11,620 nt of DNA from Pseudomonadota bacterium (GCA_043718025.1 JAYSWN010000086.1:1-11620); one strand, 5' to 3'; counted from the stretch's first letter, positions 1,788-11,620 are shown. Notes: a model not told the origin generated them from the sequence alone. A program made the numbers and translations.

Positions 1788-3362
1788 TTGGATTTTTTGC
1801 TGACCACCATCAATGCTCGCTACCAGCACGCCTCGTTAGGCCTGCGCTACCTCTTTGCCAATCTGGGAAAGTGGCAGGCCCACACCAAGCTCATGGAATT
1901 TACGCTCGAGCATCAAGCTACCGATATCGTGGAGGCGATTCTACGCGAAAATCCAAAGGCGGTGGGATTTGGCGTCTACATTTGGAATGTTCAGCTCACC
2001 ACCGAAGCGGTGGAAATATTGAAAAAAGTGGCGCCCCACATTCGCGTGGTGGTGGGCGGACCCGAAGTCAGTTTCGAAATTGAGGGGCAGCCGTTGTGTC
2101 GTCTAGTAGATGCGGTGATTCCGGGGGAGGCGGAAGAGCGCCTCCGCCTCTGGTGCGACGGCGTATTGGGCGAAGGAGCCGGCTTTACTTCAAAGATAGT
2201 AGTAGGGCCGCCGCCTGAGATTTCAGCCATCAAGCTGCCGTACCATCTATACACTGATGAAGACGTGGCCCACCGCGTGATCTACGTCGAGGCTTCGCGC
2301 GGCTGCGCTTACCGCTGCGAGTTTTGCCTCTCGGCTCTCGATGAAAAGGTACGGCTATTTTCGCTTGAGGCTTTTCTAGGCGAATTACAAATATTGATCG
2401 AGCGCGGGGCACGCCAATTTAAGTTCGTCGATCGCACGTTTAATTTGAGCATTCCCGTAAGCACCAGAATTTTAGACTTCTTTCTTGAGCGCTTGAGTCT
2501 TGGCCTGTTTCTTCACTTTGAAATGGTGCCCGAACGACTACCCGAGGAATTGAAAGAGAGAATTAGGAAGTTTCCCAAGGGGGCGCTTCAATTCGAAGTC
2601 GGAATCCAGACGTGGAACCCCGAGGTTTCTAAGGGCATTAGCCGCCCGCAAAATTACGCAAAGATTGAAGAGAACCTCATCTTCTTACGATCGCAGACCG
2701 ACACCCATCTCCACACCGATCTGATTGTCGGCCTGCCGGGAGAAAATGTGGATAGTTTTGGCGTAGGTTTCGACGCCTTAAACCGTTTGCGTCCGCACGA
2801 GATTCAAGTGGGAATTCTAAAACGACTGCGCGGGATGCCGCTTAACCGGCAAATTCAAACGGCCAGTCTTCTCTTTAGCGAAATGCCGCCCTATTCAATT
2901 TTGAGCACCAATTCGTTAACCTTCGTGGAAGTTCAAGAGCTGAAACGGTTTGCAAAGTTTTGGGAGTTGATTGCCAATCGTGGGCAGCTGCCGCGCACTT
3001 TAAATACGATGCGTCTGATTGCCGCGGCGCGGGCTAATCCTAGTTTCTTTGTTTTATTTCGCGAACTCTGTCAGTGGTTGGGGCGGCGTCACCCAAAACT
3101 GCATAGCATTGGTCTGCCCACCTTGATTGAATCGATTTGGCTTTTTTTCAAAGACGACGGGGAGCAAGCCAGTGACTCAATCGGTCACGCTCTGGCTCAA
3201 GACTATTCCGCCGAGGGGAAACGTTATTTGCCGCCATTCTTGCGTCCGTATGCTCCCGCTGATGAGGGCAAGGCTTCACAAATAAAAAAGAGAAGCTCGG
3301 CCGTCTCCACCCCATCTCGTCAGCAACGTCACTCTGAATTCAGCGGCCAACTTGAAGCGTGA
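1788..3362 (+). CDS. B12-binding-domain radical SAM protein (probably the DUF4080-type family); substrate unknown
   Basis: 524-aa ORF with a TTG start and a good SD. The N-terminal region is cobalamin-binding-like (INARYQHASLGLRYL, GFGVYIWN, VVVGGPEVS, GEAE). It has the radical SAM triad EASRGCAYRCEFC (CxxxCxxC), then FVDRTFN, EVGIQT and DLIVGLPGE. Confidence 0.88.
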   Translation: MDFLLTTINARYQHASLGLRYLFANLGKWQAHTKLMEFTLEHQATDIVEAILRENPKAVGFGVYIWNVQLTTEAVEILKKVAPHIRVVVGGPEVSFEIEGQPLCRLVDAVIPGEAEERLRLWCDGVLGEGAGFTSKIVVGPPPEISAIKLPYHLYTDEDVAHRVIYVEASRGCAYRCEFCLSALDEKVRLFSLEAFLGELQILIERGARQFKFVDRTFNLSIPVSTRILDFFLERLSLGLFLHFEMVPERLPEELKERIRKFPKGALQFEVGIQTWNPEVSKGISRPQNYAKIEENLIFLRSQTDTHLHTDLIVGLPGENVDSFGVGFDALNRLRPHEIQVGILKRLRGMPLNRQIQTASLLFSEMPPYSILSTNSLTFVEVQELKRFAKFWELIANRGQLPRTLNTMRLIAAARANPSFFVLFRELCQWLGRRHPKLHSIGLPTLIESIWLFFKDDGEQASDSIGHALAQDYSAEGKRYLPPFLRPYAPADEGKASQIKKRSSAVSTPSRQQRHSEFSGQLEA

Positions 3363-3376
3363 GATCGAGCCCGTCG

Positions 3377-5290
3377 TTAGGATTGCTTGAGCTTCTCGAT
3401 AAAGCGCTCGAGGTAATTTTGTACTCGAATCGACAGTCCAAACCCCAAGATACCAAGCACCATAAGAATTAGGGTAAGCCAGCGGTACCAGTAATGCTCT
3501 TCGTTGGGGATGGTCGGCATTAGGAAAATAAATAGGGCGGCGCCAAAAATTGGCAGCGCCCCCGCCGACCAACAGAAAAGGCGAAGCGTTTTTTCGTTGC
3601 TCTCCAAATCTCGGGTCGCATTTTCCGCTAAGCTCTCTTTGCCCCACCACAGTTTTGGGTATAGGTAGCGGATCATTAAAAGCGAAGTGGCTAAATACGA
3701 ATACGTTCCCGAAACTAAAGCGGACAAAAAGAACGAAACAAAAAAATGACCGTAGGTGGCCAAGGAGGGCAGTGGCGAACTCAAGAAGTGAATGCCAAAA
3801 GGAAATACGATGAAGGAGCAGCTCCACAAACAGCAGGGTATGAAAAAAGTACGAAACGGATGCGATAGCGCAATTTTTCGGTACGACGCTGCAGTCTGCG
3901 ATTTGCCATTTACCACTCGTTTATTGGTGCGAAAAAGGGGCATCACGCGCGGAAATAGGAGCCACGTACCAAGAGCAAAAATGACCGGGTTATATACCAA
4001 GCACAAGTAGCCAAAAACCTGTCTTTGCGAGGCGTTCAGCCAATCGACGATTTGGGTGCCGTTGTAGAGAATGTTAACCAGAGATCCGATGAATTGTGGA
4101 ATCAATACCGCCAGCACGGCGGCGGTTCGTGGTTCACGCCCCATCCAGTCTAAATAAAACGGCGCAGGCCCGGCGGCGTTTGAGGCATTAGCCACCCGCA
4201 AAGCATTTCTGGTTTCAACCGCCCATTGATCCGCACAGGCCCGTTCGGTGGGCACTAAAGATAAACTCTCTTGGTGGCATTCCAAATCCAGCCGCCCCGT
4301 CAAATTCCATAATTCCACCAATTCACTGGTAACTCTAGCCAACGCGTATACGTCACTGGCCGGAGAGAGTCGGCGGAACGAATCGGCACTCAGGTCCGAA
4401 AAACTTTCTTTCTGTTCAGGCGGCATATACGCCTCGGTGCCGCCGAACAGAGTTTGATGGCTATCGGGCGACTCTTTTTCGAACGCGATATTGAAATCGG
4501 TAAGCCACGCTTTTCCGTATAGATCGATGAGGATGTTGCCGGGTTTTACGTCGAGGTGAAGCACGCCACGATTATGGGCGTAGGCCAGTGCCGACGCTAT
4601 TTGCCCCATCCAGCTCAGTACAATTGCCTTGGTGTCGAGCCCAGAAAACTCGGTGCGCTCCCTTAGGCGAGAGGGCAGTAGCCCGTCTCTTTCTCCTACT
4701 GTCCCTTCACTGGCCGAATCTAAAACCGTTAACACTTCGGCACCTGAAGTGGGAATGGCGATTAAGCGTTTGAGCAGTGCCTCCAAAGAAAGGCCAGGTA
4801 CGTAATGGAGGCATAGTAAACGGTTACCCGCGTCCAAACGACTCTCTGAAAAAATTCTAACGATGTGGGGATGGTCGAGCGGGGCCAACGTTCGTGACTC
4901 GGTGCCGAGATTCGGAGTGATCTTGAGCGCTACCGTTCGTCCCAAGGAGATCTGCCGGGCGCGGAACACCGAGCCGAAGGCGCCTTGGCCAAGTTGCTCT
5001 TCTAACTTAAAGTCGCCCAACTGGTCGCCCACTTGAAAGCCGTCGTGGTCGGCCAGGGCACTGACCATGTGCTTTTCATCTATTTTCCAATGGCTAGCGG
5101 CATTTGAATCAAGGTCATTGTCGAGTAGCGATCTGAGGTCATCGACCGCCGAAGGGTTCGATCGAGAAAGGGCGTCCAGTTTTTCAAGGCGGGCTTCCGG
5201 CGGAAGGTGGGTCAGCAGAGCAAATTGTTCGGCCAGCCATTCATGATCGCTTGCCTGAGCGGGGCCGTCGTTAAGAAGTTCATCACTCAA
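3377..5290 (-). CDS. Hanks-type Ser/Thr protein kinase with a C-terminal polytopic membrane domain (about 6 TM), ECF-sigma-associated
   Basis: Kinase motifs: LGQGAFGSVFRA, VALK, LDHPHIVRI, HLDVKPGNIL, TDFNIA, GGTEAYMPPEQ, SDVYAL. About six hydrophobic stretches follow in the C-terminal ~250 aa. I moved the start from the ORF track's 5341 to TTG at 5290, which overlaps the ECF TGA stop (TTGA); this is inference. Confidence 0.9.
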   Translation of the reverse strand: MSDELLNDGPAQASDHEWLAEQFALLTHLPPEARLEKLDALSRSNPSAVDDLRSLLDNDLDSNAASHWKIDEKHMVSALADHDGFQVGDQLGDFKLEEQLGQGAFGSVFRARQISLGRTVALKITPNLGTESRTLAPLDHPHIVRIFSESRLDAGNRLLCLHYVPGLSLEALLKRLIAIPTSGAEVLTVLDSASEGTVGERDGLLPSRLRERTEFSGLDTKAIVLSWMGQIASALAYAHNRGVLHLDVKPGNILIDLYGKAWLTDFNIAFEKESPDSHQTLFGGTEAYMPPEQKESFSDLSADSFRRLSPASDVYALARVTSELVELWNLTGRLDLECHQESLSLVPTERACADQWAVETRNALRVANASNAAGPAPFYLDWMGREPRTAAVLAVLIPQFIGSLVNILYNGTQIVDWLNASQRQVFGYLCLVYNPVIFALGTWLLFPRVMPLFRTNKRVVNGKSQTAASYRKIALSHPFRTFFIPCCLWSCSFIVFPFGIHFLSSPLPSLATYGHFFVSFFLSALVSGTYSYLATSLLMIRYLYPKLWWGKESLAENATRDLESNEKTLRLFCWSAGALPIFGAALFIFLMPTIPNEEHYWYRWLTLILMVLGILGFGLSIRVQNYLERFIEKLKQS

Positions 5291-5865
5291 ACGTCCGCCG
5301 ATTTCATCTCTTTGGCGAGCCAAGCGCGGGCGAAAGACCAATCGCGTTTTACCGTGGCCAATGAAATATCGAGCGCCTTAGCGATGTCCTCGTAATCAAG
5401 ATTGGCAAAGAATTTGAGCTCGACCAACTTTGCTCGCCGCGAATCCACTTTTTCAAATTTTTCAAGCGCCACTTCAAGCCGTAGCAAAAAATCATCGGTT
5501 TCATCATCCGCGGCTTCTTGCTCTTGTTCCTTAATGTAGCGGTAGTCAGTTTTATCGTGGCGTTTGGCGGCAAGGTTACGCCGGGCCCGATCAACCAGTA
5601 CCCGCCTCATGAATGAGGCCACCAGGGCAAAAAAGTGATTTCGGTTTTCGAAATGAATAGAATGTTGTCCAAGTAGTCGTAAAAATGCCTCGTTTACTAG
5701 GGCGGTGGGCTGCAGGGTACCCGGGTAAGCCTCTTTTCGTAAAAAGCCACGCGCCACTTGTTTAAGGTAGGGGTAGACCAAGGGCGTAAGTTCTTCTAGG
5801 GCCTTGGGGTCTCCTTTAGAAAATTCAGCCAAATATCGAGTGATCTGGGCTTTTGTCTCGTTCAT
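5287..5865 (-). CDS. ECF-type sigma-70 factor, kinase-associated (TIGR02999 / Sigma70_ECF-like, ECF43-like)
   Basis: 192-aa ORF with ITRYL..FSKGDPKALEELTPLVY..LKQVA, TLQPTALVNEAFLRL, NRNHFFALVASFMRRVLVDRAR, and the region 4 HTH VELKFFANLDYEDIAKALDISLATVKRDWSFARAWL. The ATG is 2 bp after the rel stop. Confidence 0.92.
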   Translation of the reverse strand: MNETKAQITRYLAEFSKGDPKALEELTPLVYPYLKQVARGFLRKEAYPGTLQPTALVNEAFLRLLGQHSIHFENRNHFFALVASFMRRVLVDRARRNLAAKRHDKTDYRYIKEQEQEAADDETDDFLLRLEVALEKFEKVDSRRAKLVELKFFANLDYEDIAKALDISLATVKRDWSFARAWLAKEMKSADV

Positions 5866-5867
5866 CG

Positions 5868-8099
5868 TTAGTTCTTCTTTTGCACGCGTTCTGCCGAAGT
5901 GACGCCTGGAACGCCGCGCAATTCAGAGAGAATGGTTTTAAGCTGCTTCAAGTCGGCAATGGTGAGCGAAAATTGGCAAACGGCCCGGCGATCTTTGGTG
6001 GTGCCAACGCGGGCGTTGGTGATGTTGACGTTATGCTGGCCAATCGCATCGCTCATGTCGGCCAGTAATCCTGGTCGATCGGTGCAAATGATACGAATCT
6101 GCACTTTTCGCTCGGCGGGTTTGCTTAAGTCCCAGTCGATATCTACCAGCCGGTGAGGATCGGTACCCAATACCTTGGGGCAAGCTTTGGCGTGCACGCT
6201 GATGCCACGGCCGCGCGTGATAAAACCAATGACGTTGTCGCCGGGAACCGGGCTGCAACAGCGAGCAAAACGTACGAGTAGATCATCTACTCCCCGTACC
6301 TTAACCGTCTGACTGGTCTTGCTCTTTTTAGCGGCCTCTTCGGCGATACGCTGCATCGGCGCCTTTTTCTCGGGCGCCGCGGTAGACTCTCGGTTGGTGA
6401 CCTTGGTTAAAATCTTTTTGGCCGAGATCTTTCCGTATCCGACTGACGATAAAAGATCGTCGGCGGTCTTAAGTGAAAAAGACTCAGCAATTTTTTGCAA
6501 CGATCCGTCTTTGATCATGACCGACAAATTTACGCCGTCGCGACGAAATTCTTTTTCTAAAATGTTCTGTCCTGAAATCTTCGACGTGTCGTGCTCTCGA
6601 GCCTTGATGTAGGCACGAATCTTATTCTTGGCGCGCGAGGTTTTTACAATCTTGAGCCAGTCTTTATTCGGAAACTGGCTGGGCGAGGTAAGCACCTCGA
6701 TCGAATCACCACTCTTAAGCTTGTACTTTAGCGGCACAATCCGCGAATTCACTTTAGCGCCGATACAATGAGTGCCCAGTTCGGTGTGAACCGAATACGC
6801 AAAGTCTAACGGCGTCGCCCCTTGAGGAAACTCCATCACCTTGCCCTTGGGTGTGAACACGTAAACATCTTCAGAAAAGAGATCGAGCTTCACCGTTTCT
6901 AAAAACTCGGTGTTGTCCGAAACCTCTTTGTTCCACTCTAAGAGGCGATTCAACCACGAGAAGCGCTCTTGTTCCCGGCTAAGCCCACCGCCGGCTTTGT
7001 AAACCCAATGGGCGGCGATACCGCGCTCGGCGGTGTCATGCATTTCATGCGTGCGAATTTGAATTTCGATACGTTCGCCACCCGGTCCGATCACGGTGGT
7101 GTGCAACGACTGGTAAAGGTTGGCCTTGGGAATGGCGATGTAGTCCTTGAATCGTCCCGGCACCGGCGTCCACAAACTGTGGATCACGCCCAGCGTGCCG
7201 TAACAGTGCTCAATTGAATCCACCATGATGCGAAACCCGGTGATGTCGTAAATCTGCTCGAAGGTAAGCGACCGTCGTTCCATTTTCTGGTGAATACTAA
7301 AGAAGTGTTTGGGGCGCCCTTTCACCACAGTATTCGCGTAGCCATGGTCTTGAAGTGCCGCCTGAATCATGGCCTGTACATCGGCCGTGTACTTTTCACG
7401 CTCTTTTATCTTTTTGGCGACCTGGGTGACCAGCTTGTAATAAGTTTCTGGTTTGGTGTAGCGCAATCCTAAGTCTTCGAGTTCGCGTTTTACTGAAGAC
7501 AAACCCAGGCGGTTAGCCAACGGAGCATAAATATCTAAAGTCTCTTGGGCGATGCGCGCCTGTTTTTCTGGTTTCAAGTGCTGCAACGTGCGCATGTTGT
7601 GAAGGCGGTCGACGAGCTTTACCAGAATGACGCGAATGTCTTTAGCCATCGCCAAGATCATCTTGCGAAAGTTTTCGGCCTGCTTTTCTTCCGAGGTTTG
7701 AAAAGAGATTTTGCTGATTTTGGTCAATCCATCGACCAAAATTGCGATCTCGGGGCCAAACTCTTTTTGAATTTCCTCGAGCGAGGCGACGGTATCTTCA
7801 ACCGTGTCATGGAGCAGGCCGGTGGCCACGGTAATGGCATCTAAGCGCAACTCCGCCAAAATATGGGCCACCTGAAGGGGGTGATATATGTACGGTTCAC
7901 CGCTGGTACGGCGTTGTCCCTGGTGGGCTTTAAACGAGAATGCGTAGGCTTTGCGAATGATATCTAAATCAGCCTTGGGGTGATTGGTAAGCACAAGCTG
8001 GCACAAGGCCTCTAAGCTATCCGTACTGGCGTTTGCCTCTTCGGCATCTATTTCTGGCGCAACTTCGACCACCAAAGTAGGCGGGCCGTTTTTTTTCAC
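5868..8099 (-). CDS. rel: Bifunctional (p)ppGpp synthetase/hydrolase (long RSH, Rel)
   Basis: Intact hydrolase motifs (HQGQRRTSGEPYIYHP, LLHDTVEDT, KLVDRLHNMRTL) and synthetase motifs (GRPKH, RFKD = RxKD type, YQSLHTT, EIQIRT). TGS (VFTPKG...TPLDFAYSVH), Cys/ZFD (ARCCSPVPGD...VH..CP) and ACT/RRM (DRPGLLAD) domains follow. The likely start is GTG at 8099, overlapping the gmk TGA (GTGA) with AGGAAGGAG upstream; the ORF track uses GTG 8108. Confidence 0.95.
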   Translation of the reverse strand: MKKNGPPTLVVEVAPEIDAEEANASTDSLEALCQLVLTNHPKADLDIIRKAYAFSFKAHQGQRRTSGEPYIYHPLQVAHILAELRLDAITVATGLLHDTVEDTVASLEEIQKEFGPEIAILVDGLTKISKISFQTSEEKQAENFRKMILAMAKDIRVILVKLVDRLHNMRTLQHLKPEKQARIAQETLDIYAPLANRLGLSSVKRELEDLGLRYTKPETYYKLVTQVAKKIKEREKYTADVQAMIQAALQDHGYANTVVKGRPKHFFSIHQKMERRSLTFEQIYDITGFRIMVDSIEHCYGTLGVIHSLWTPVPGRFKDYIAIPKANLYQSLHTTVIGPGGERIEIQIRTHEMHDTAERGIAAHWVYKAGGGLSREQERFSWLNRLLEWNKEVSDNTEFLETVKLDLFSEDVYVFTPKGKVMEFPQGATPLDFAYSVHTELGTHCIGAKVNSRIVPLKYKLKSGDSIEVLTSPSQFPNKDWLKIVKTSRAKNKIRAYIKAREHDTSKISGQNILEKEFRRDGVNLSVMIKDGSLQKIAESFSLKTADDLLSSVGYGKISAKKILTKVTNRESTAAPEKKAPMQRIAEEAAKKSKTSQTVKVRGVDDLLVRFARCCSPVPGDNVIGFITRGRGISVHAKACPKVLGTDPHRLVDIDWDLSKPAERKVQIRIICTDRPGLLADMSDAIGQHNVNITNARVGTTKDRRAVCQFSLTIADLKQLKTILSELRGVPGVTSAERVQKKN

Positions 8100-8683
8100 A
8101 GTCCGCACTCCTTCCTCACCACTTCCTTAAGCTCAGCGTAGGTGGTCTGCAAATTTTCGTTAGTGATTTGGTAGTCGAACCAGTCGCACTGCGAAATTTC
8201 TACCCGCGCGTTATCCAGCCGTTTTTGAATGGCCTCTTCAGAATCTCCCCGGCGCGCCCTCAAGCGGCGTTCTAATTCTTCGAGGGAAGGGGGCAAGATA
8301 AAAATTAAAAGCGACTGCTCAGGGTAGAGTTGCTTAAGACTTTTGGCCCCCTGCACGTCAATATCAAAAAGGATGTGATGCCCTAGCTTGAACTGTTCCT
8401 GAATGGTGCTTAACGAGGTTCCGTAACGATTTTGGTGCACGAACGCCCATTCGGCAAAATCGTGTAGATCAATCTTGCGCTCGAACTCGGCTTCGCTAAC
8501 AAAATGGTAATGGGTGCCATCGACTTCATTGGGTCGCTTGGGGCGAGTGGTGGTTGAGACGCTGAGAGAAATCGAAGGAAATTCTTTGAGCAGAAGTTCG
8601 CACAGCGTGGTTTTGCCTCCGCCGCTCGGGGCCGCCAATATGATGAGGCGTAATTTGGAAACGGCATTTCCCTTAGGAGGCAA
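8096..8683 (-). CDS. gmk: Guanylate kinase
   Basis: P-loop APSGGGKTT, then SVSTTTRPKRPNEVDGTHYHFVS, EWAFVHQNRYGT, DIDVQGA, FILPPSLEELERRL. The start is uncertain. TTG 8683 (11-bp overlap with remA) is preferred; ATG 8728 and 8746 are in-frame alternatives. Confidence 0.95.
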   Translation of the reverse strand: MPPKGNAVSKLRLIILAAPSGGGKTTLCELLLKEFPSISLSVSTTTRPKRPNEVDGTHYHFVSEAEFERKIDLHDFAEWAFVHQNRYGTSLSTIQEQFKLGHHILFDIDVQGAKSLKQLYPEQSLLIFILPPSLEELERRLRARRGDSEEAIQKRLDNARVEISQCDWFDYQITNENLQTTYAELKEVVRKECGL

Positions 8684-8999
8684 ATTCCCCTTCTTTCCAT
8701 TCCAATTCGCAACGTTTTGCGTGGGCATCGTTCTTCTGTGGGCCATTTGGGTTCAGCCGCTGCGTTATTTTCAGCGGGGTGAATGAACTTAAAATGACGT
8801 GCCCCGAGTCGGTAACCACAATGGCGCGGGTCTTTCGGCCGGCGGTGGCGTCCAAGAGTCGGTTCTCTTTTTCGGCTTGCTCCCGAAGCCTTTTCGAAGG
8901 CAGCGAGGTGCTGGGCTGAACGGCCACAATTCGCTCTGCCATCACAAAGTTGTCATAACCTAATGAAAGAATAGCGCGATCTTCTTTTCTATTCGACAT
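8673..8999 (-). CDS. remA: DUF370 / RemA-family protein (extracellular matrix regulator-like)
   Basis: LSLGYDNFVMAERIVAV..S.PSKRL....LLDATAGRKTRAIVVTDSGHVILS matches the RemA/YlzA pattern, and the gene sits in the canonical position between yicC/yloC and gmk. Start ATG 8999 (11-bp overlap with the yicC end) is preferred over 9044. Confidence 0.9.
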   Translation of the reverse strand: MSNRKEDRAILSLGYDNFVMAERIVAVQPSTSLPSKRLREQAEKENRLLDATAGRKTRAIVVTDSGHVILSSFTPLKITQRLNPNGPQKNDAHAKRCELEWKEGEFAS

Positions 9000-9873
9000 T
9001 TTGGACCTGTTCCCTGAGCCGTTCCACAAGCCCTTTTCCTTCAACGACCAGTTGAGTCAATTCAATCCACTGGGATTTGGTCCCTAAAGTATTTAGCTCA
9101 CGATGAAGCTCTTGGGTTAGAAAATCCAGCTTTTTCCCAATTCCTTTGTCCTCGGAGCCTACGGTCTTTTGAAACTCTACCAGGTGCGACCCAAGTCGTT
9201 CTAATTCTTCAGTAACTTCGCCTTTATCCGCATAAAAGGCGATCTCCCATTCAAGACGCTGCGAGTCCACCGGCGCGGTCAGATTCCAGCCCGCCACCCG
9301 GTCGCGCACCTTTTTTTCGGTACGTTTGCGCTGTTCGGGGGCTAGAAGCTGTAGTTTGGCTACAATTTCATGCAGCACCCGAAGTTCCTTGGCTAAGCTC
9401 TCCTTAAGGCGCCGGCCCTCGGCCATGCGCATGGTCTTTAGTTCGGTTAAAAGTTTGTCCAACACCGGGTTCATGCCGGCGAGAAAAACGTTGGCGTCCT
9501 GGCTGGTCTCCTGGGCGATGAACACCCGTTGGGTAAGCGCAAAAAACTCTAGGGTGGGCTTTGAATTGATTCGGTACTGAAAATTCAGACGATCACAGGC
9601 TTCAAGTAAGCTCTGCACGGCCCCCTCGTCGAGACCAAACCGCGTCATCGATGGGGTGTTTTCATTGGCTTGCGTTCGAAAAAAAATTTCAATCGACCCG
9701 CGGTCGAAATACGATCGTACTTTTTCCACGATGGGGAGTTCAATGAGCGCCAGTGAACTTGGTAGTCGAACGCGTACGTCCAGAAAACGGTGGTTCACCG
9801 ATTTCACTTCTAATGAAAAACGTGTTCCTCCGGCCTCTCCGTCGGCACGAGCAAATCCGGTCATCGATTGCAT
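8989..9873 (-). CDS. yicC: YicC/YloC-family endoribonuclease
   Basis: MQSMTGFAR, EVKSVNHRFLD, RG.IE, R..EG..L, EVTEELERLGSHL, GKKLDFLTQELHRELNTLGTKS, and the terminal REQVQNVE. ATG at 9873 has GGGAG upstream and sits 1 bp after the miaA stop. Confidence 0.95.
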   Translation of the reverse strand: MQSMTGFARADGEAGGTRFSLEVKSVNHRFLDVRVRLPSSLALIELPIVEKVRSYFDRGSIEIFFRTQANENTPSMTRFGLDEGAVQSLLEACDRLNFQYRINSKPTLEFFALTQRVFIAQETSQDANVFLAGMNPVLDKLLTELKTMRMAEGRRLKESLAKELRVLHEIVAKLQLLAPEQRKRTEKKVRDRVAGWNLTAPVDSQRLEWEIAFYADKGEVTEELERLGSHLVEFQKTVGSEDKGIGKKLDFLTQELHRELNTLGTKSQWIELTQLVVEGKGLVERLREQVQNVE

Positions 9874-9874
9874 G

Positions 9875-10834
9875 TCAGGCTCCCAGCACAAAATTTAGGT
9901 TGTCGACTTCTTTGGCCACGCGATCTCCATCGCGACCATCCACAAAACGTATTTCTGCATCGCTTCGAATCCACGTGATCTGGCGTTTGGCCAGTTGGCT
10001 CGTTTTATTGATGATGTCGTTGCGAAGCTGTTTTTCGGTAATCTGTTTATTCACGTGGGCACACGCTTCAACGTAACCAACGCTCTGCAATGCCCGGGCG
10101 GTGGGGTATTTTTCCATCAGCGCCGCAGTCTCTTTCACCAGACCATCTCGAATCATCACGTCGGTGCGCATGGTAATTTGCGCCGCCAGCGTGTGGCGTG
10201 AAATCGCCATTGAGTATTTCATCCAAATGCGATTGCTGTGATGAGGTGATTTGTGAGCGGGTACCAACTCACTCGGTTTCTTTCCCGTAGCACGAATTAC
10301 GGCCAGGGCGCGAAGCAAACGGTATTTATCGTGGGGATGAATGTTTTTTGCTGATCCCGGATCGGCTTTTTGCAGATCCTCGTGCATGCGGGTGAGGTCC
10401 AAGGCTTCGTCTACGGCGTACTCTTTTTCAACTTCGTTGACCACGTCGTCTGAGATCTCCGGCACCGGATACATGCCGTGCTGAAGCGCGCGCAGATAAA
10501 AATACGTGCCGCCCACAATAAGGGGCAGCTTGCCGCGCGAAAGGATGTCGTCGATCGCCGCGTGCGCTAAATCCACGAACTTTCCGGCTGAAAAATCTTC
10601 AAGTGGGTCGAGAATGTCGACCAAATGATGGCGAATCTTTTTTTGGCTGGCGGCACTGGCCTTGGCCGAACCGATATCGAAACCGCGGTAGACCGTGGTT
10701 GAATCCAGGCACAATATTTCACCGTTAAGCCGTTCGGCAGTTTGCATCGCGAATTCGGTTTTGCCGCTTGCCGTTGGCCCAAGTAAAGCCAGGCAAAGCG
10801 ATTTTCTTGAGGGGATGGTCATTTTGTCGTTCAC
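9875..10834 (-). CDS. miaA: tRNA (adenosine(37)-N6)-dimethylallyltransferase
   Basis: GPTASGKT, DSTTVYRGFDIGSAK, HHLVD, IVGGTYFY, IHPHDKYRLLRAL, SVGYVE, LAKRQITW. It lies directly downstream of mutL. Start is GTG 10834 or ATG 10822. Confidence 0.95.
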   Translation of the reverse strand: MNDKMTIPSRKSLCLALLGPTASGKTEFAMQTAERLNGEILCLDSTTVYRGFDIGSAKASAASQKKIRHHLVDILDPLEDFSAGKFVDLAHAAIDDILSRGKLPLIVGGTYFYLRALQHGMYPVPEISDDVVNEVEKEYAVDEALDLTRMHEDLQKADPGSAKNIHPHDKYRLLRALAVIRATGKKPSELVPAHKSPHHSNRIWMKYSMAISRHTLAAQITMRTDVMIRDGLVKETAALMEKYPTARALQSVGYVEACAHVNKQITEKQLRNDIINKTSQLAKRQITWIRSDAEIRFVDGRDGDRVAKEVDNLNFVLGA

Positions 10835-10842
10835 CGTGAGTG

Positions 10843-11620
10843 TTATCCTTTTCCTCGTTCAAACTGTTTTGCTAAAAAATTCCAACTCATTCTCCAGAGC
10901 ACGGGGCGCCCATGGGGGCAGGTCCAGCCTTCTTCGAGATCTCCTAGCCGTTCAATCAGGGCGCGGGCCTCAATTTCAGAAAGCCGTTGCCCCGCGCGTA
11001 CCGAAGCGTGGCATGCCCAGGTGGCAAAAACTCTGCGGTACCACGACTCTACCTCGTCGCCGGTGGCCACCTCACTCTCCTCCGCCGGAGACTCCACCAG
11101 CAGTTTCAAAATTGCTTTAAGTAGCTCGGGGGCCCGCGCGGCGTCGATCAACACTGGATACGCTTTGATCGCCACGTCGCCGTCGCCAAAGGCGTCCGCT
11201 TCAAAGCCTAAGTTTCTCAAAGTGGCCCCACACTTGTCGATAGCCACCACCAATTCTTTGTCGAATCGCACGATTTGGGGCACCAAAAGTTGTTGGGAGA
11301 GCGGGTTTTGGTTGGCTTTGGCCGTCCGAATCTTTTCGAACGTCTGTTTTTCATGCAAAGCGTGCTGATCGAAGAGCACCAGCCCTTGTGCGTCTTCACC
11401 CACCAGATAACTGGCCCCGGCTTGCCCTAAATAGCGAAAACCCGAGATCGCTTGGGGCAGGGTTACGGCTACGGGTGTCGCGCGTCCTAAGGATTGAGTG
11501 GGTGCAAAACGACCAGAGGGCGATGGGGCCGTTGAGGACGTCTGGGGAGGCTTCCCGTAGAATTCTCCGCCGAAGTTCCAGTTCGGAGCCCTCTCTTGTG
11601 GCGATACTTTGCAAGGTGCG
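10843..11620 (-). CDS. mutL: DNA mismatch repair endonuclease MutL, linker and C-terminal domain (5' end outside the window)
   Basis: I translated the frame past 11403; it stays open to the window edge through a P/S/T-rich linker and FRYLGQAGASYLV. Motifs: DQHALHEKQTFE (DQHAxxExxxxE), QQLLVP (beta-clamp binding), ACH and CPHGRP. Confidence 0.95.
   Translation of the reverse strand, partial: APCKVSPQERAPNWNFGGEFYGKPPQTSSTAPSPSGRFAPTQSLGRATPVAVTLPQAISGFRYLGQAGASYLVGEDAQGLVLFDQHALHEKQTFEKIRTAKANQNPLSQQLLVPQIVRFDKELVVAIDKCGATLRNLGFEADAFGDGDVAIKAYPVLIDAARAPELLKAILKLLVESPAEESEVATGDEVESWYRRVFATWACHASVRAGQRLSEIEARALIERLGDLEEGWTCPHGRPVLWRMSWNFLAKQFERGKG

Follow-up and report, generated by a model that had tools for sequence, protein, structure and literature searches.

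A probable ECF43 sigma factor-kinase cassette behind rel in one bacterial genus, with a predicted six-helix membrane domain on the kinase

The window analysed here is the whole 11,620-nucleotide (nt) contig JAYSWN010000086.1:1-11620 of a Pseudomonadota bacterium (GCA_043718025.1, genome G000). On its minus strand it carries an extracytoplasmic function (ECF) sigma factor gene of the ECF43 group and a Hanks-type Ser/Thr kinase gene directly behind rel, the gene of the guanosine tetra- and pentaphosphate ((p)ppGpp) synthetase/hydrolase. ECF43-kinase pairs are well known, and the rel arrangement is a real, genus-limited case with a variant sensor kinase. The pair is probably a mobile, post-translationally gated cassette that borrows constitutive read-through of a housekeeping operon, its switch being the predicted phosphorylation of Thr54 of the sigma factor and not ppGpp. 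A dedicated ppGpp circuit is unsupported and seems unlikely, although omega and DksA are present. The cassette likely moved behind rel in the ancestor of one genus.

The genes of the unit, all on the minus strand, are tightly packed. The gmk stop codon (TGA, 8098-8096) overlaps by 4 nt (GTGA) the GTG start of rel at 8099, which has a Shine-Dalgarno duplex of -8.9 kcal/mol; a second candidate GTG lies at 8108. The rel gene (5868..8099) ends with TAA (5870-5868), followed by CG, a 2-nt spacer read from the sequence (5866..5867), and by the ATG of the ECF gene at 5865. The ECF gene (5287..5865, 192 residues) ends with TGA (5289-5287), which overlaps by 4 nt (TTGA) the TTG start at 5290 of the kinase gene (3377..5290, 637 residues). 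This TTG start is backed by a 637-residue database protein (P0001) and by orthologues of the kinase, whose starts also lie at the ECF stop. The three junctions had been described in these terms in the original prediction and are confirmed, as is the lack of an anti-sigma gene, none being found by Pfam and gene reading between or after the rel, ECF and kinase genes. The proposed packing of gmk, rel, ECF and kinase also stands, but the unit is longer than had been stated and runs mutL-miaA-yicC-remA-gmk-rel-ECF-kinase. The kinase stop (3377) faces the stop (3362) of a convergent B12-binding radical SAM gene (1788..3362, plus strand), which bounds the unit 14 nt past the kinase. Tight spacing says little by itself, because 604 of 1353 co-directional neighbours in G000 overlap or lie less than 10 nt apart (crude set of open reading frames). 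Misassembly is argued against by two other genomes with the identical gene order.

A consensus scan of G000 found no promoter and no terminator at the gmk-rel, rel-ECF and ECF-kinase junctions. Before the ECF gene, neither a sigma70 nor a FliA promoter of consensus type was seen, nor a terminator. No sigma70-like site was detected within about 960 nt upstream of this gene, even at a relaxed threshold, and over about 490 nt the coding strand has no FliA site of at least 7 bits. The ECF ATG is not preceded by a Shine-Dalgarno sequence (duplex of -2.0 kcal/mol, compared with -5.0 to -8.9 kcal/mol at the chosen starts of the six other genes). These scans agree with the absence of an intergenic promoter or terminator noted originally, and co-transcription of rel, ECF and kinase in G000 appears likely, as does the expression of the pair from a housekeeping operon that had been proposed.

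The sigma factor scores 160 bits against PF07638 and 189 bits (cut-off 126) against TIGR02999, which we take to be the ECF43 profile; it is the only protein of G000 above the TIGR02999 cut-off. The Pfam family Sigma70_ECF (PF07638) has been tied to the ECF43 group (PMC7826278). Region 2.2 contains a QPTA motif whose Thr54 (codon at 5704..5706, minus strand) is the predicted phosphorylation site, equivalent to T51 of EcfK, and is invariant in all 24 aligned ECF43 sigma factors. The ECF43 consensus at this position is QTTA, an uncharged Thr motif in place of DAED (PMC13147305). Both genes of the pair are under purifying selection, with nonsynonymous differences (pN) of 0.06-0.25 for the sigma factor and 0.20-0.34 for the kinase, compared with synonymous differences (pS) of 0.60-0.84. 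By its sequence, with its ECF43 profile, Thr54 within QPTA, a kinase gene at position +1 and conserved kinase catalytic residues, the pair looks like the kinase-activated ECF type that had been predicted.

The kinase (PF00069; AlphaFold2 model with a pLDDT of 82.7 and a kinase fold) comprises three parts. An N-terminal extension of residues 11-60 (5111..5260, minus strand) is modelled as three helices (residues 11-27, 31-44 and 46-60). The kinase domain (4172..5008, minus strand) contains K123, E131, H-L-D247-x-K-x-x-N, D265-F-N, E292, D313 and R350; it is of the non-RD type, with HLD for HRD, DFN for DFG and an insert of about 45 residues. All 20 aligned relatives share K123, E131, D247, K249, N252, D265, E292, D313 and R350. 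Alignment, model and fold thus agree on the Hanks catalytic residues, with the HLD and DFN variants, and on the N-terminal helical extension. Residues 126-145, the αC region, do not form a helix in the model. Finally, the C-terminal 250 residues form, in the model, six long helices joined by short loops, a predicted membrane domain by hydropathy (3386..4132, minus strand; pLDDT 89, pTM 0.88).

This sensor part differs from that of most of the group, where a single membrane helix with outer tetratricopeptide repeats (TPRs) is found in 87.8% of kinases (PMC7826278 supplement); the window kinase has six predicted helices, its outer loops are short and no TPR was matched. Because these loops are short, sensing likely takes place in the membrane and not via periplasmic TPRs. 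The domain had no match in Pfam, NCBIfam, PDB sequences or Foldseek. With VIA-align the best hits were helical bundles of insecticidal proteins (Z 9.4, rmsd 4.5, 202 aligned residues), under the level that is meaningful for helical bundles, and these matches indicate neither homology nor a new fold for the modelled domain. Word-indexed protein searches, which are insensitive, returned only fused kinases and one fragment. MASE10 and actinobacterial HAMP-linked anchors gave atlas scores of 0.77-0.81 and are leads only, without a Pfam match. The domain is fused to HLD/DFN kinases, among them ECF43 kinases across the order and two Planctomycete kinases (L095, L099), which have no ECF43 gene within 5 kb. 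Asn, Gln, Trp, Pro and Tyr positions are invariant in the domain, and a His is mostly conserved.

The order rel-ECF43-kinase is found in G000, G001 and G002, three of the four genomes of the genus, with rel-to-ECF spacers of 2, 35 and 123 nt, respectively. A hairpin directly follows rel in G002. G001 and G002 share the convergent radical-SAM gene and have one extra gene after the kinase (L062:10689-12475 and L063:740-2406, respectively). This unnamed gene encodes a probably exported protein and is a candidate target of the sigma factor; its homologues in G000 lie on other contigs. The fourth genome, G003, is a sister of G001 (Rel 92% and ECF 89% identical) and keeps rel, ECF43 and kinase; there, a convergent gene of 860 codons follows rel (L064:534-3116) and the ECF-kinase pair occupies a different contig. 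The 860-residue protein has a low-complexity N-terminus and, by eye, a motif like that of von Willebrand factor A domains, with no Pfam match at 1e-5. Judged from gene order, the ancestor of the genus probably had the rel linkage already, and a single loss followed, in G003.

Beyond this genus the linkage disappears. Of the 38 genomes of the order, 19 carry ECF43, with 36 genes in all; three of these genes adjoin rel, and the same three are the only ones to share a contig with rel (the rel of G027 was placed by a separate search and added to this count). The search for conserved adjacency to rel that had been proposed with the original prediction thus returned three loci of one genus. The remaining 16 genomes of the order with an ECF43 gene lack the adjacency. 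No ECF43 gene lies within 1.5 kb after rel in the 21 family genomes of other genera (two loci ended early at contig ends); in 10 of these 21, a convergent S8 subtilase gene follows rel, the commonest gene at this place in the family. A sample of 401 genomes of the phylum, with at most eight candidates scored in each, contained no ECF43 outside the order, and rel was found in none of 88 wider kinase or ECF loci among the matches listed, 9 of them metagenomic, a weak test in which unrelated kinases dominate. No linkage beyond one genus, or of independent origin, was encountered. Adjacency restricted to this genome, with the pair elsewhere in relatives, had been named as a result that would speak against a rel connection: within the genus the linkage is shared by three of the four genomes, but elsewhere in the order the pair does lie apart from rel. 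The linkage is real but confined to one genus.

The cassette occurs in many other contexts. Kinases of the window type are present in 17 of 34 family genomes, mostly directly after an ECF43 gene and in unrelated surroundings. A co-directional open reading frame lies at most 250 nt upstream at 14 of the 30 ECF43 loci examined, and is rel at three of these 14. In G008 (L192:2097-5572) the pair overlaps by 14 nt a gene for an IscS-like class V aminotransferase, an independent case of fusion to the tail of another gene, and in G010 the cassette overlaps an unknown open reading frame by 14 nt. A housekeeping gene, fpg, is recorded at position -1 for subgroup ECF43s1 (PMC7826278 supplement). Some ECF43 genes are divergent from a kinase-like gene instead of upstream of it, and some kinases of the window type have a short or absent N-terminal extension (such loci are L053, L057, L059 (G008); L078, L086, L090, L093).

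A FliA-type site, T(C/T)AAG-N16-(C/T)CGATA, precedes 13 of the 29 ECF43 genes with enough upstream sequence, a count that is partly circular because the matrix was built from those same sites. These FliA/sigma28-type sites lie 7-28 nt before the ECF43 starts of family paralogues (L045, L049-L056, L058-L061), which form a cluster in the tree; the rel-linked copies lie outside it and have no such site. Three other ECF43 upstream regions have a sigma70-like promoter (shuffle p≤0.025). The cassette accepts many promoters, since FliA-type and sigma70-like sites occur at different copies. Autoregulation of ECF43 through the 13 motifs was considered and rejected, as the motif is the published Bdellovibrio FliA consensus, TTAAG-N16-CCGATA (PMC3627812), and FliA is encoded in G000 (C66:8149-8943, L182; 278 bits). 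G000 and its relatives probably belong to a Bdellovibrionota-like lineage. A FliA-to-ECF43 cascade is, from these motifs, likely in the paralogues.

We propose the following sequence of events. A single transcript would run from mutL through the kinase gene. In G000, the spacer would have shrunk to 2 nt, and the ECF gene likely relies on re-initiation after Rel because its start has no Shine-Dalgarno sequence; the kinase, from its TTG start, would be made by re-initiation after the sigma factor, both at a low steady level. With QPTA instead of acidic residues in region 2.2, the sigma factor would bind core RNA polymerase poorly and, by analogy with EcfP and EcfK, would stay inactive until the kinase adds negative charge at Thr54; steady low expression would then be all that it needs. 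The six-helix domain may respond, within the bilayer, to a cue from the membrane or from a small molecule, upon which the kinase would phosphorylate Thr54 and the phosphorylated sigma factor would transcribe its regulon. If gating occurs after translation, any constitutive promoter would serve, and rel would be a convenient address and not a partner. Most likely, the link to rel shows no more than how two-gene switches with a post-translational gate ride along on housekeeping operons.

It is unlikely, in our judgement, that the linkage is functional in the genus, either because co-synthesis with Rel together with ppGpp/DksA makes the output depend on membrane signal and starvation at once, as in an AND gate, or because the kinase or the sigma factor feeds back on rel. 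Several observations nevertheless favour this explanation and weigh against hitchhiking. Adjacency to rel has persisted among the three genomes to saturation of synonymous sites, and in G000 the spacer is down to 2 nt, with no Shine-Dalgarno sequence before ECF. The ECF43 proteins of the genus sit on a long, accelerated stem (1.68 compared with 0.22 for Rel, by different tree methods) and their linker is rewritten, which together could mark a new role gained at the rel site. G000 also encodes an omega subunit whose N-terminus reads MAR and two DksA-like proteins carrying DxxDxA, motifs with a role in ppGpp/DksA action in the Escherichia coli model, so ppGpp could act on sigma competition. The genome in which the linkage appears lost, G003, has a completeness of 77%, and the contig with its ECF gene starts inside that gene, leaving the upstream context unseen. 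Finally, a tie from SigE to rel has been proposed in mycobacteria (PMC10100808). Against a functional linkage, and against the circuit between sigma factor and stringent response of the original prediction, stand the loss in G003 and the absence from the other 33 ECF43 loci, including those of the 16 further ECF43-bearing genomes. Spacer length is not conserved, the 2-nt coupling existing in G000 alone, and in G008 it is an IscS-like gene that the cassette overlaps. Rel has 4-6 genus-specific Ser/Thr columns compared with 2-6 in seven control genera, which is no excess. An effect of ppGpp would act in trans, so adjacency to rel is not needed for it. Rel is regulated mainly after translation, the SigE-rel tie is itself weak, and the core stringent response was found independent of SigE (PMC10100808). 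The fuller version, an intramembrane-sensing ECF43 pair wired into the rel operon, with sigma synthesis translationally coupled to Rel and an output requiring both the membrane signal and ppGpp/DksA, seems improbable. If true, a sigma factor gated by phosphorylation would for the first time be linked to the stringent response, and its signal would be read by a six-helix membrane sensor of a new class. A demonstration of ppGpp gating would join starvation control to envelope signalling through phosphorylation of a sigma factor.

We also think it improbable that the pair merely adjoins rel and uses its own promoter, located in the spacer in G001 and G002 or in the 3' end of rel in G000. The hairpin after rel in G002, a weak candidate promoter in the same genome (TTCCCC-17-TATGCT), the TATATT candidate of G001 and the clear sigma70 promoters of some orthologues without FliA sites would fit such an arrangement, but neither candidate exceeds shuffled sequences (p 0.245 in G002, 0.6 in G001), and the upstream scans and missing Shine-Dalgarno sequence of G000 argue against it. 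Very unlikely, in turn, is a weakly active or pseudo-kinase that does not phosphorylate the sigma factor but tethers it to the membrane, as an anti-sigma factor would. The HLD and DFN motifs, the non-RD type and the short, non-helical αC region could be read in this way, but the nine catalytic-domain residues listed above are invariant in all relatives and so is Thr54 in all sigma factors.

Compared with known systems, the pair most resembles EcfK/PknS of Xanthomonas citri, an ECF43 with a region-2.2 Thr, a kinase at +1 with an N-terminal helical extension, as on the window kinase, and no anti-sigma factor (PMC13147305). PknS differs in having one membrane helix, periplasmic TPRs and H/YRD and DFG motifs, whereas the window kinase has six predicted helices, HLD and DFN; EcfK/PknS lies in a type VI secretion locus and the present pair behind rel (PMC13147305). 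EcfP/PknT of Vibrio parahaemolyticus shares the replacement of acidic DAED by an uncharged Thr motif, STTA there and QPTA here, but serves a polymyxin response in a gammaproteobacterium, and the accessible parts of its descriptions mention no rel linkage (PMC8999054, PMC13147305). The ECF43 group as described has the Sigma70_ECF domain, the kinase at +1 and, for ECF43s1, a place behind housekeeping fpg; its kinases differ in their prevailing single helix and outer TPRs, and rel is not among the neighbours given in the accessible part of that survey (PMC7826278). The MprAB-SigE-rel system of mycobacteria is likewise a proposed ECF sigma-rel tie, but SigE is proposed to transcribe rel, whereas here the sigma gene is downstream of rel (PMC10100808).

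Rel itself is a complete bifunctional enzyme (TIGR00691, 796 bits), with an HD hydrolase domain, a synthetase domain with RxKD, and TGS, AH/RIS and ACT domains; its motifs are HDTVED, RFKD, YQSLHT and EIQIRT. It is the sole long RelA/SpoT homologue found in G000. Rel as a substrate of the kinase was considered and rejected, as its lineage-specific Ser/Thr residues are not in excess over the control genera. No description of a rel-ECF43-kinase locus was found in the literature searched; Iyer 2020, which reportedly surveys ECF43 kinase domains, or its supplements may list this architecture.

In G000, 58 strong FliA-type sites were counted, of which 31 lie just before a gene start, compared with 2-13 at wrong spacing. 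No flagellin was found in this genome, which is 92% complete, and FliA may act there as a global regulator in a cell that lacks flagella. Its sites precede Lon-like, TatA-like and pilus/secretion-like genes (labels by eye).

The upstream genes of the unit, also on the minus strand, begin with the 3' part of mutL (10843..11620, MutL_C), within which the contig ends; in G001 a divergent gene precedes mutL. They continue with miaA, for a tRNA dimethylallyltransferase (9875..10834; TIGR00174, 255 bits), a yicC/yloC endoribonuclease gene (8989..9873; TIGR00255) that lies 1 nt after miaA, a remA-like DUF370 gene (8673..8999; PF04025) that overlaps yicC by 11 nt, and gmk, for guanylate kinase (8096..8683; TIGR03263), whose TTG start has a Shine-Dalgarno sequence by scan; a longer ATG start at 8746 is possible. 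The yicC-remA-gmk block (8096-8999) leads directly into rel without rpoZ, which is on contig C225. Finally, a tatD-tcdA pair (43-1734) is divergent from the radical-SAM gene, and this block is kept in G001.

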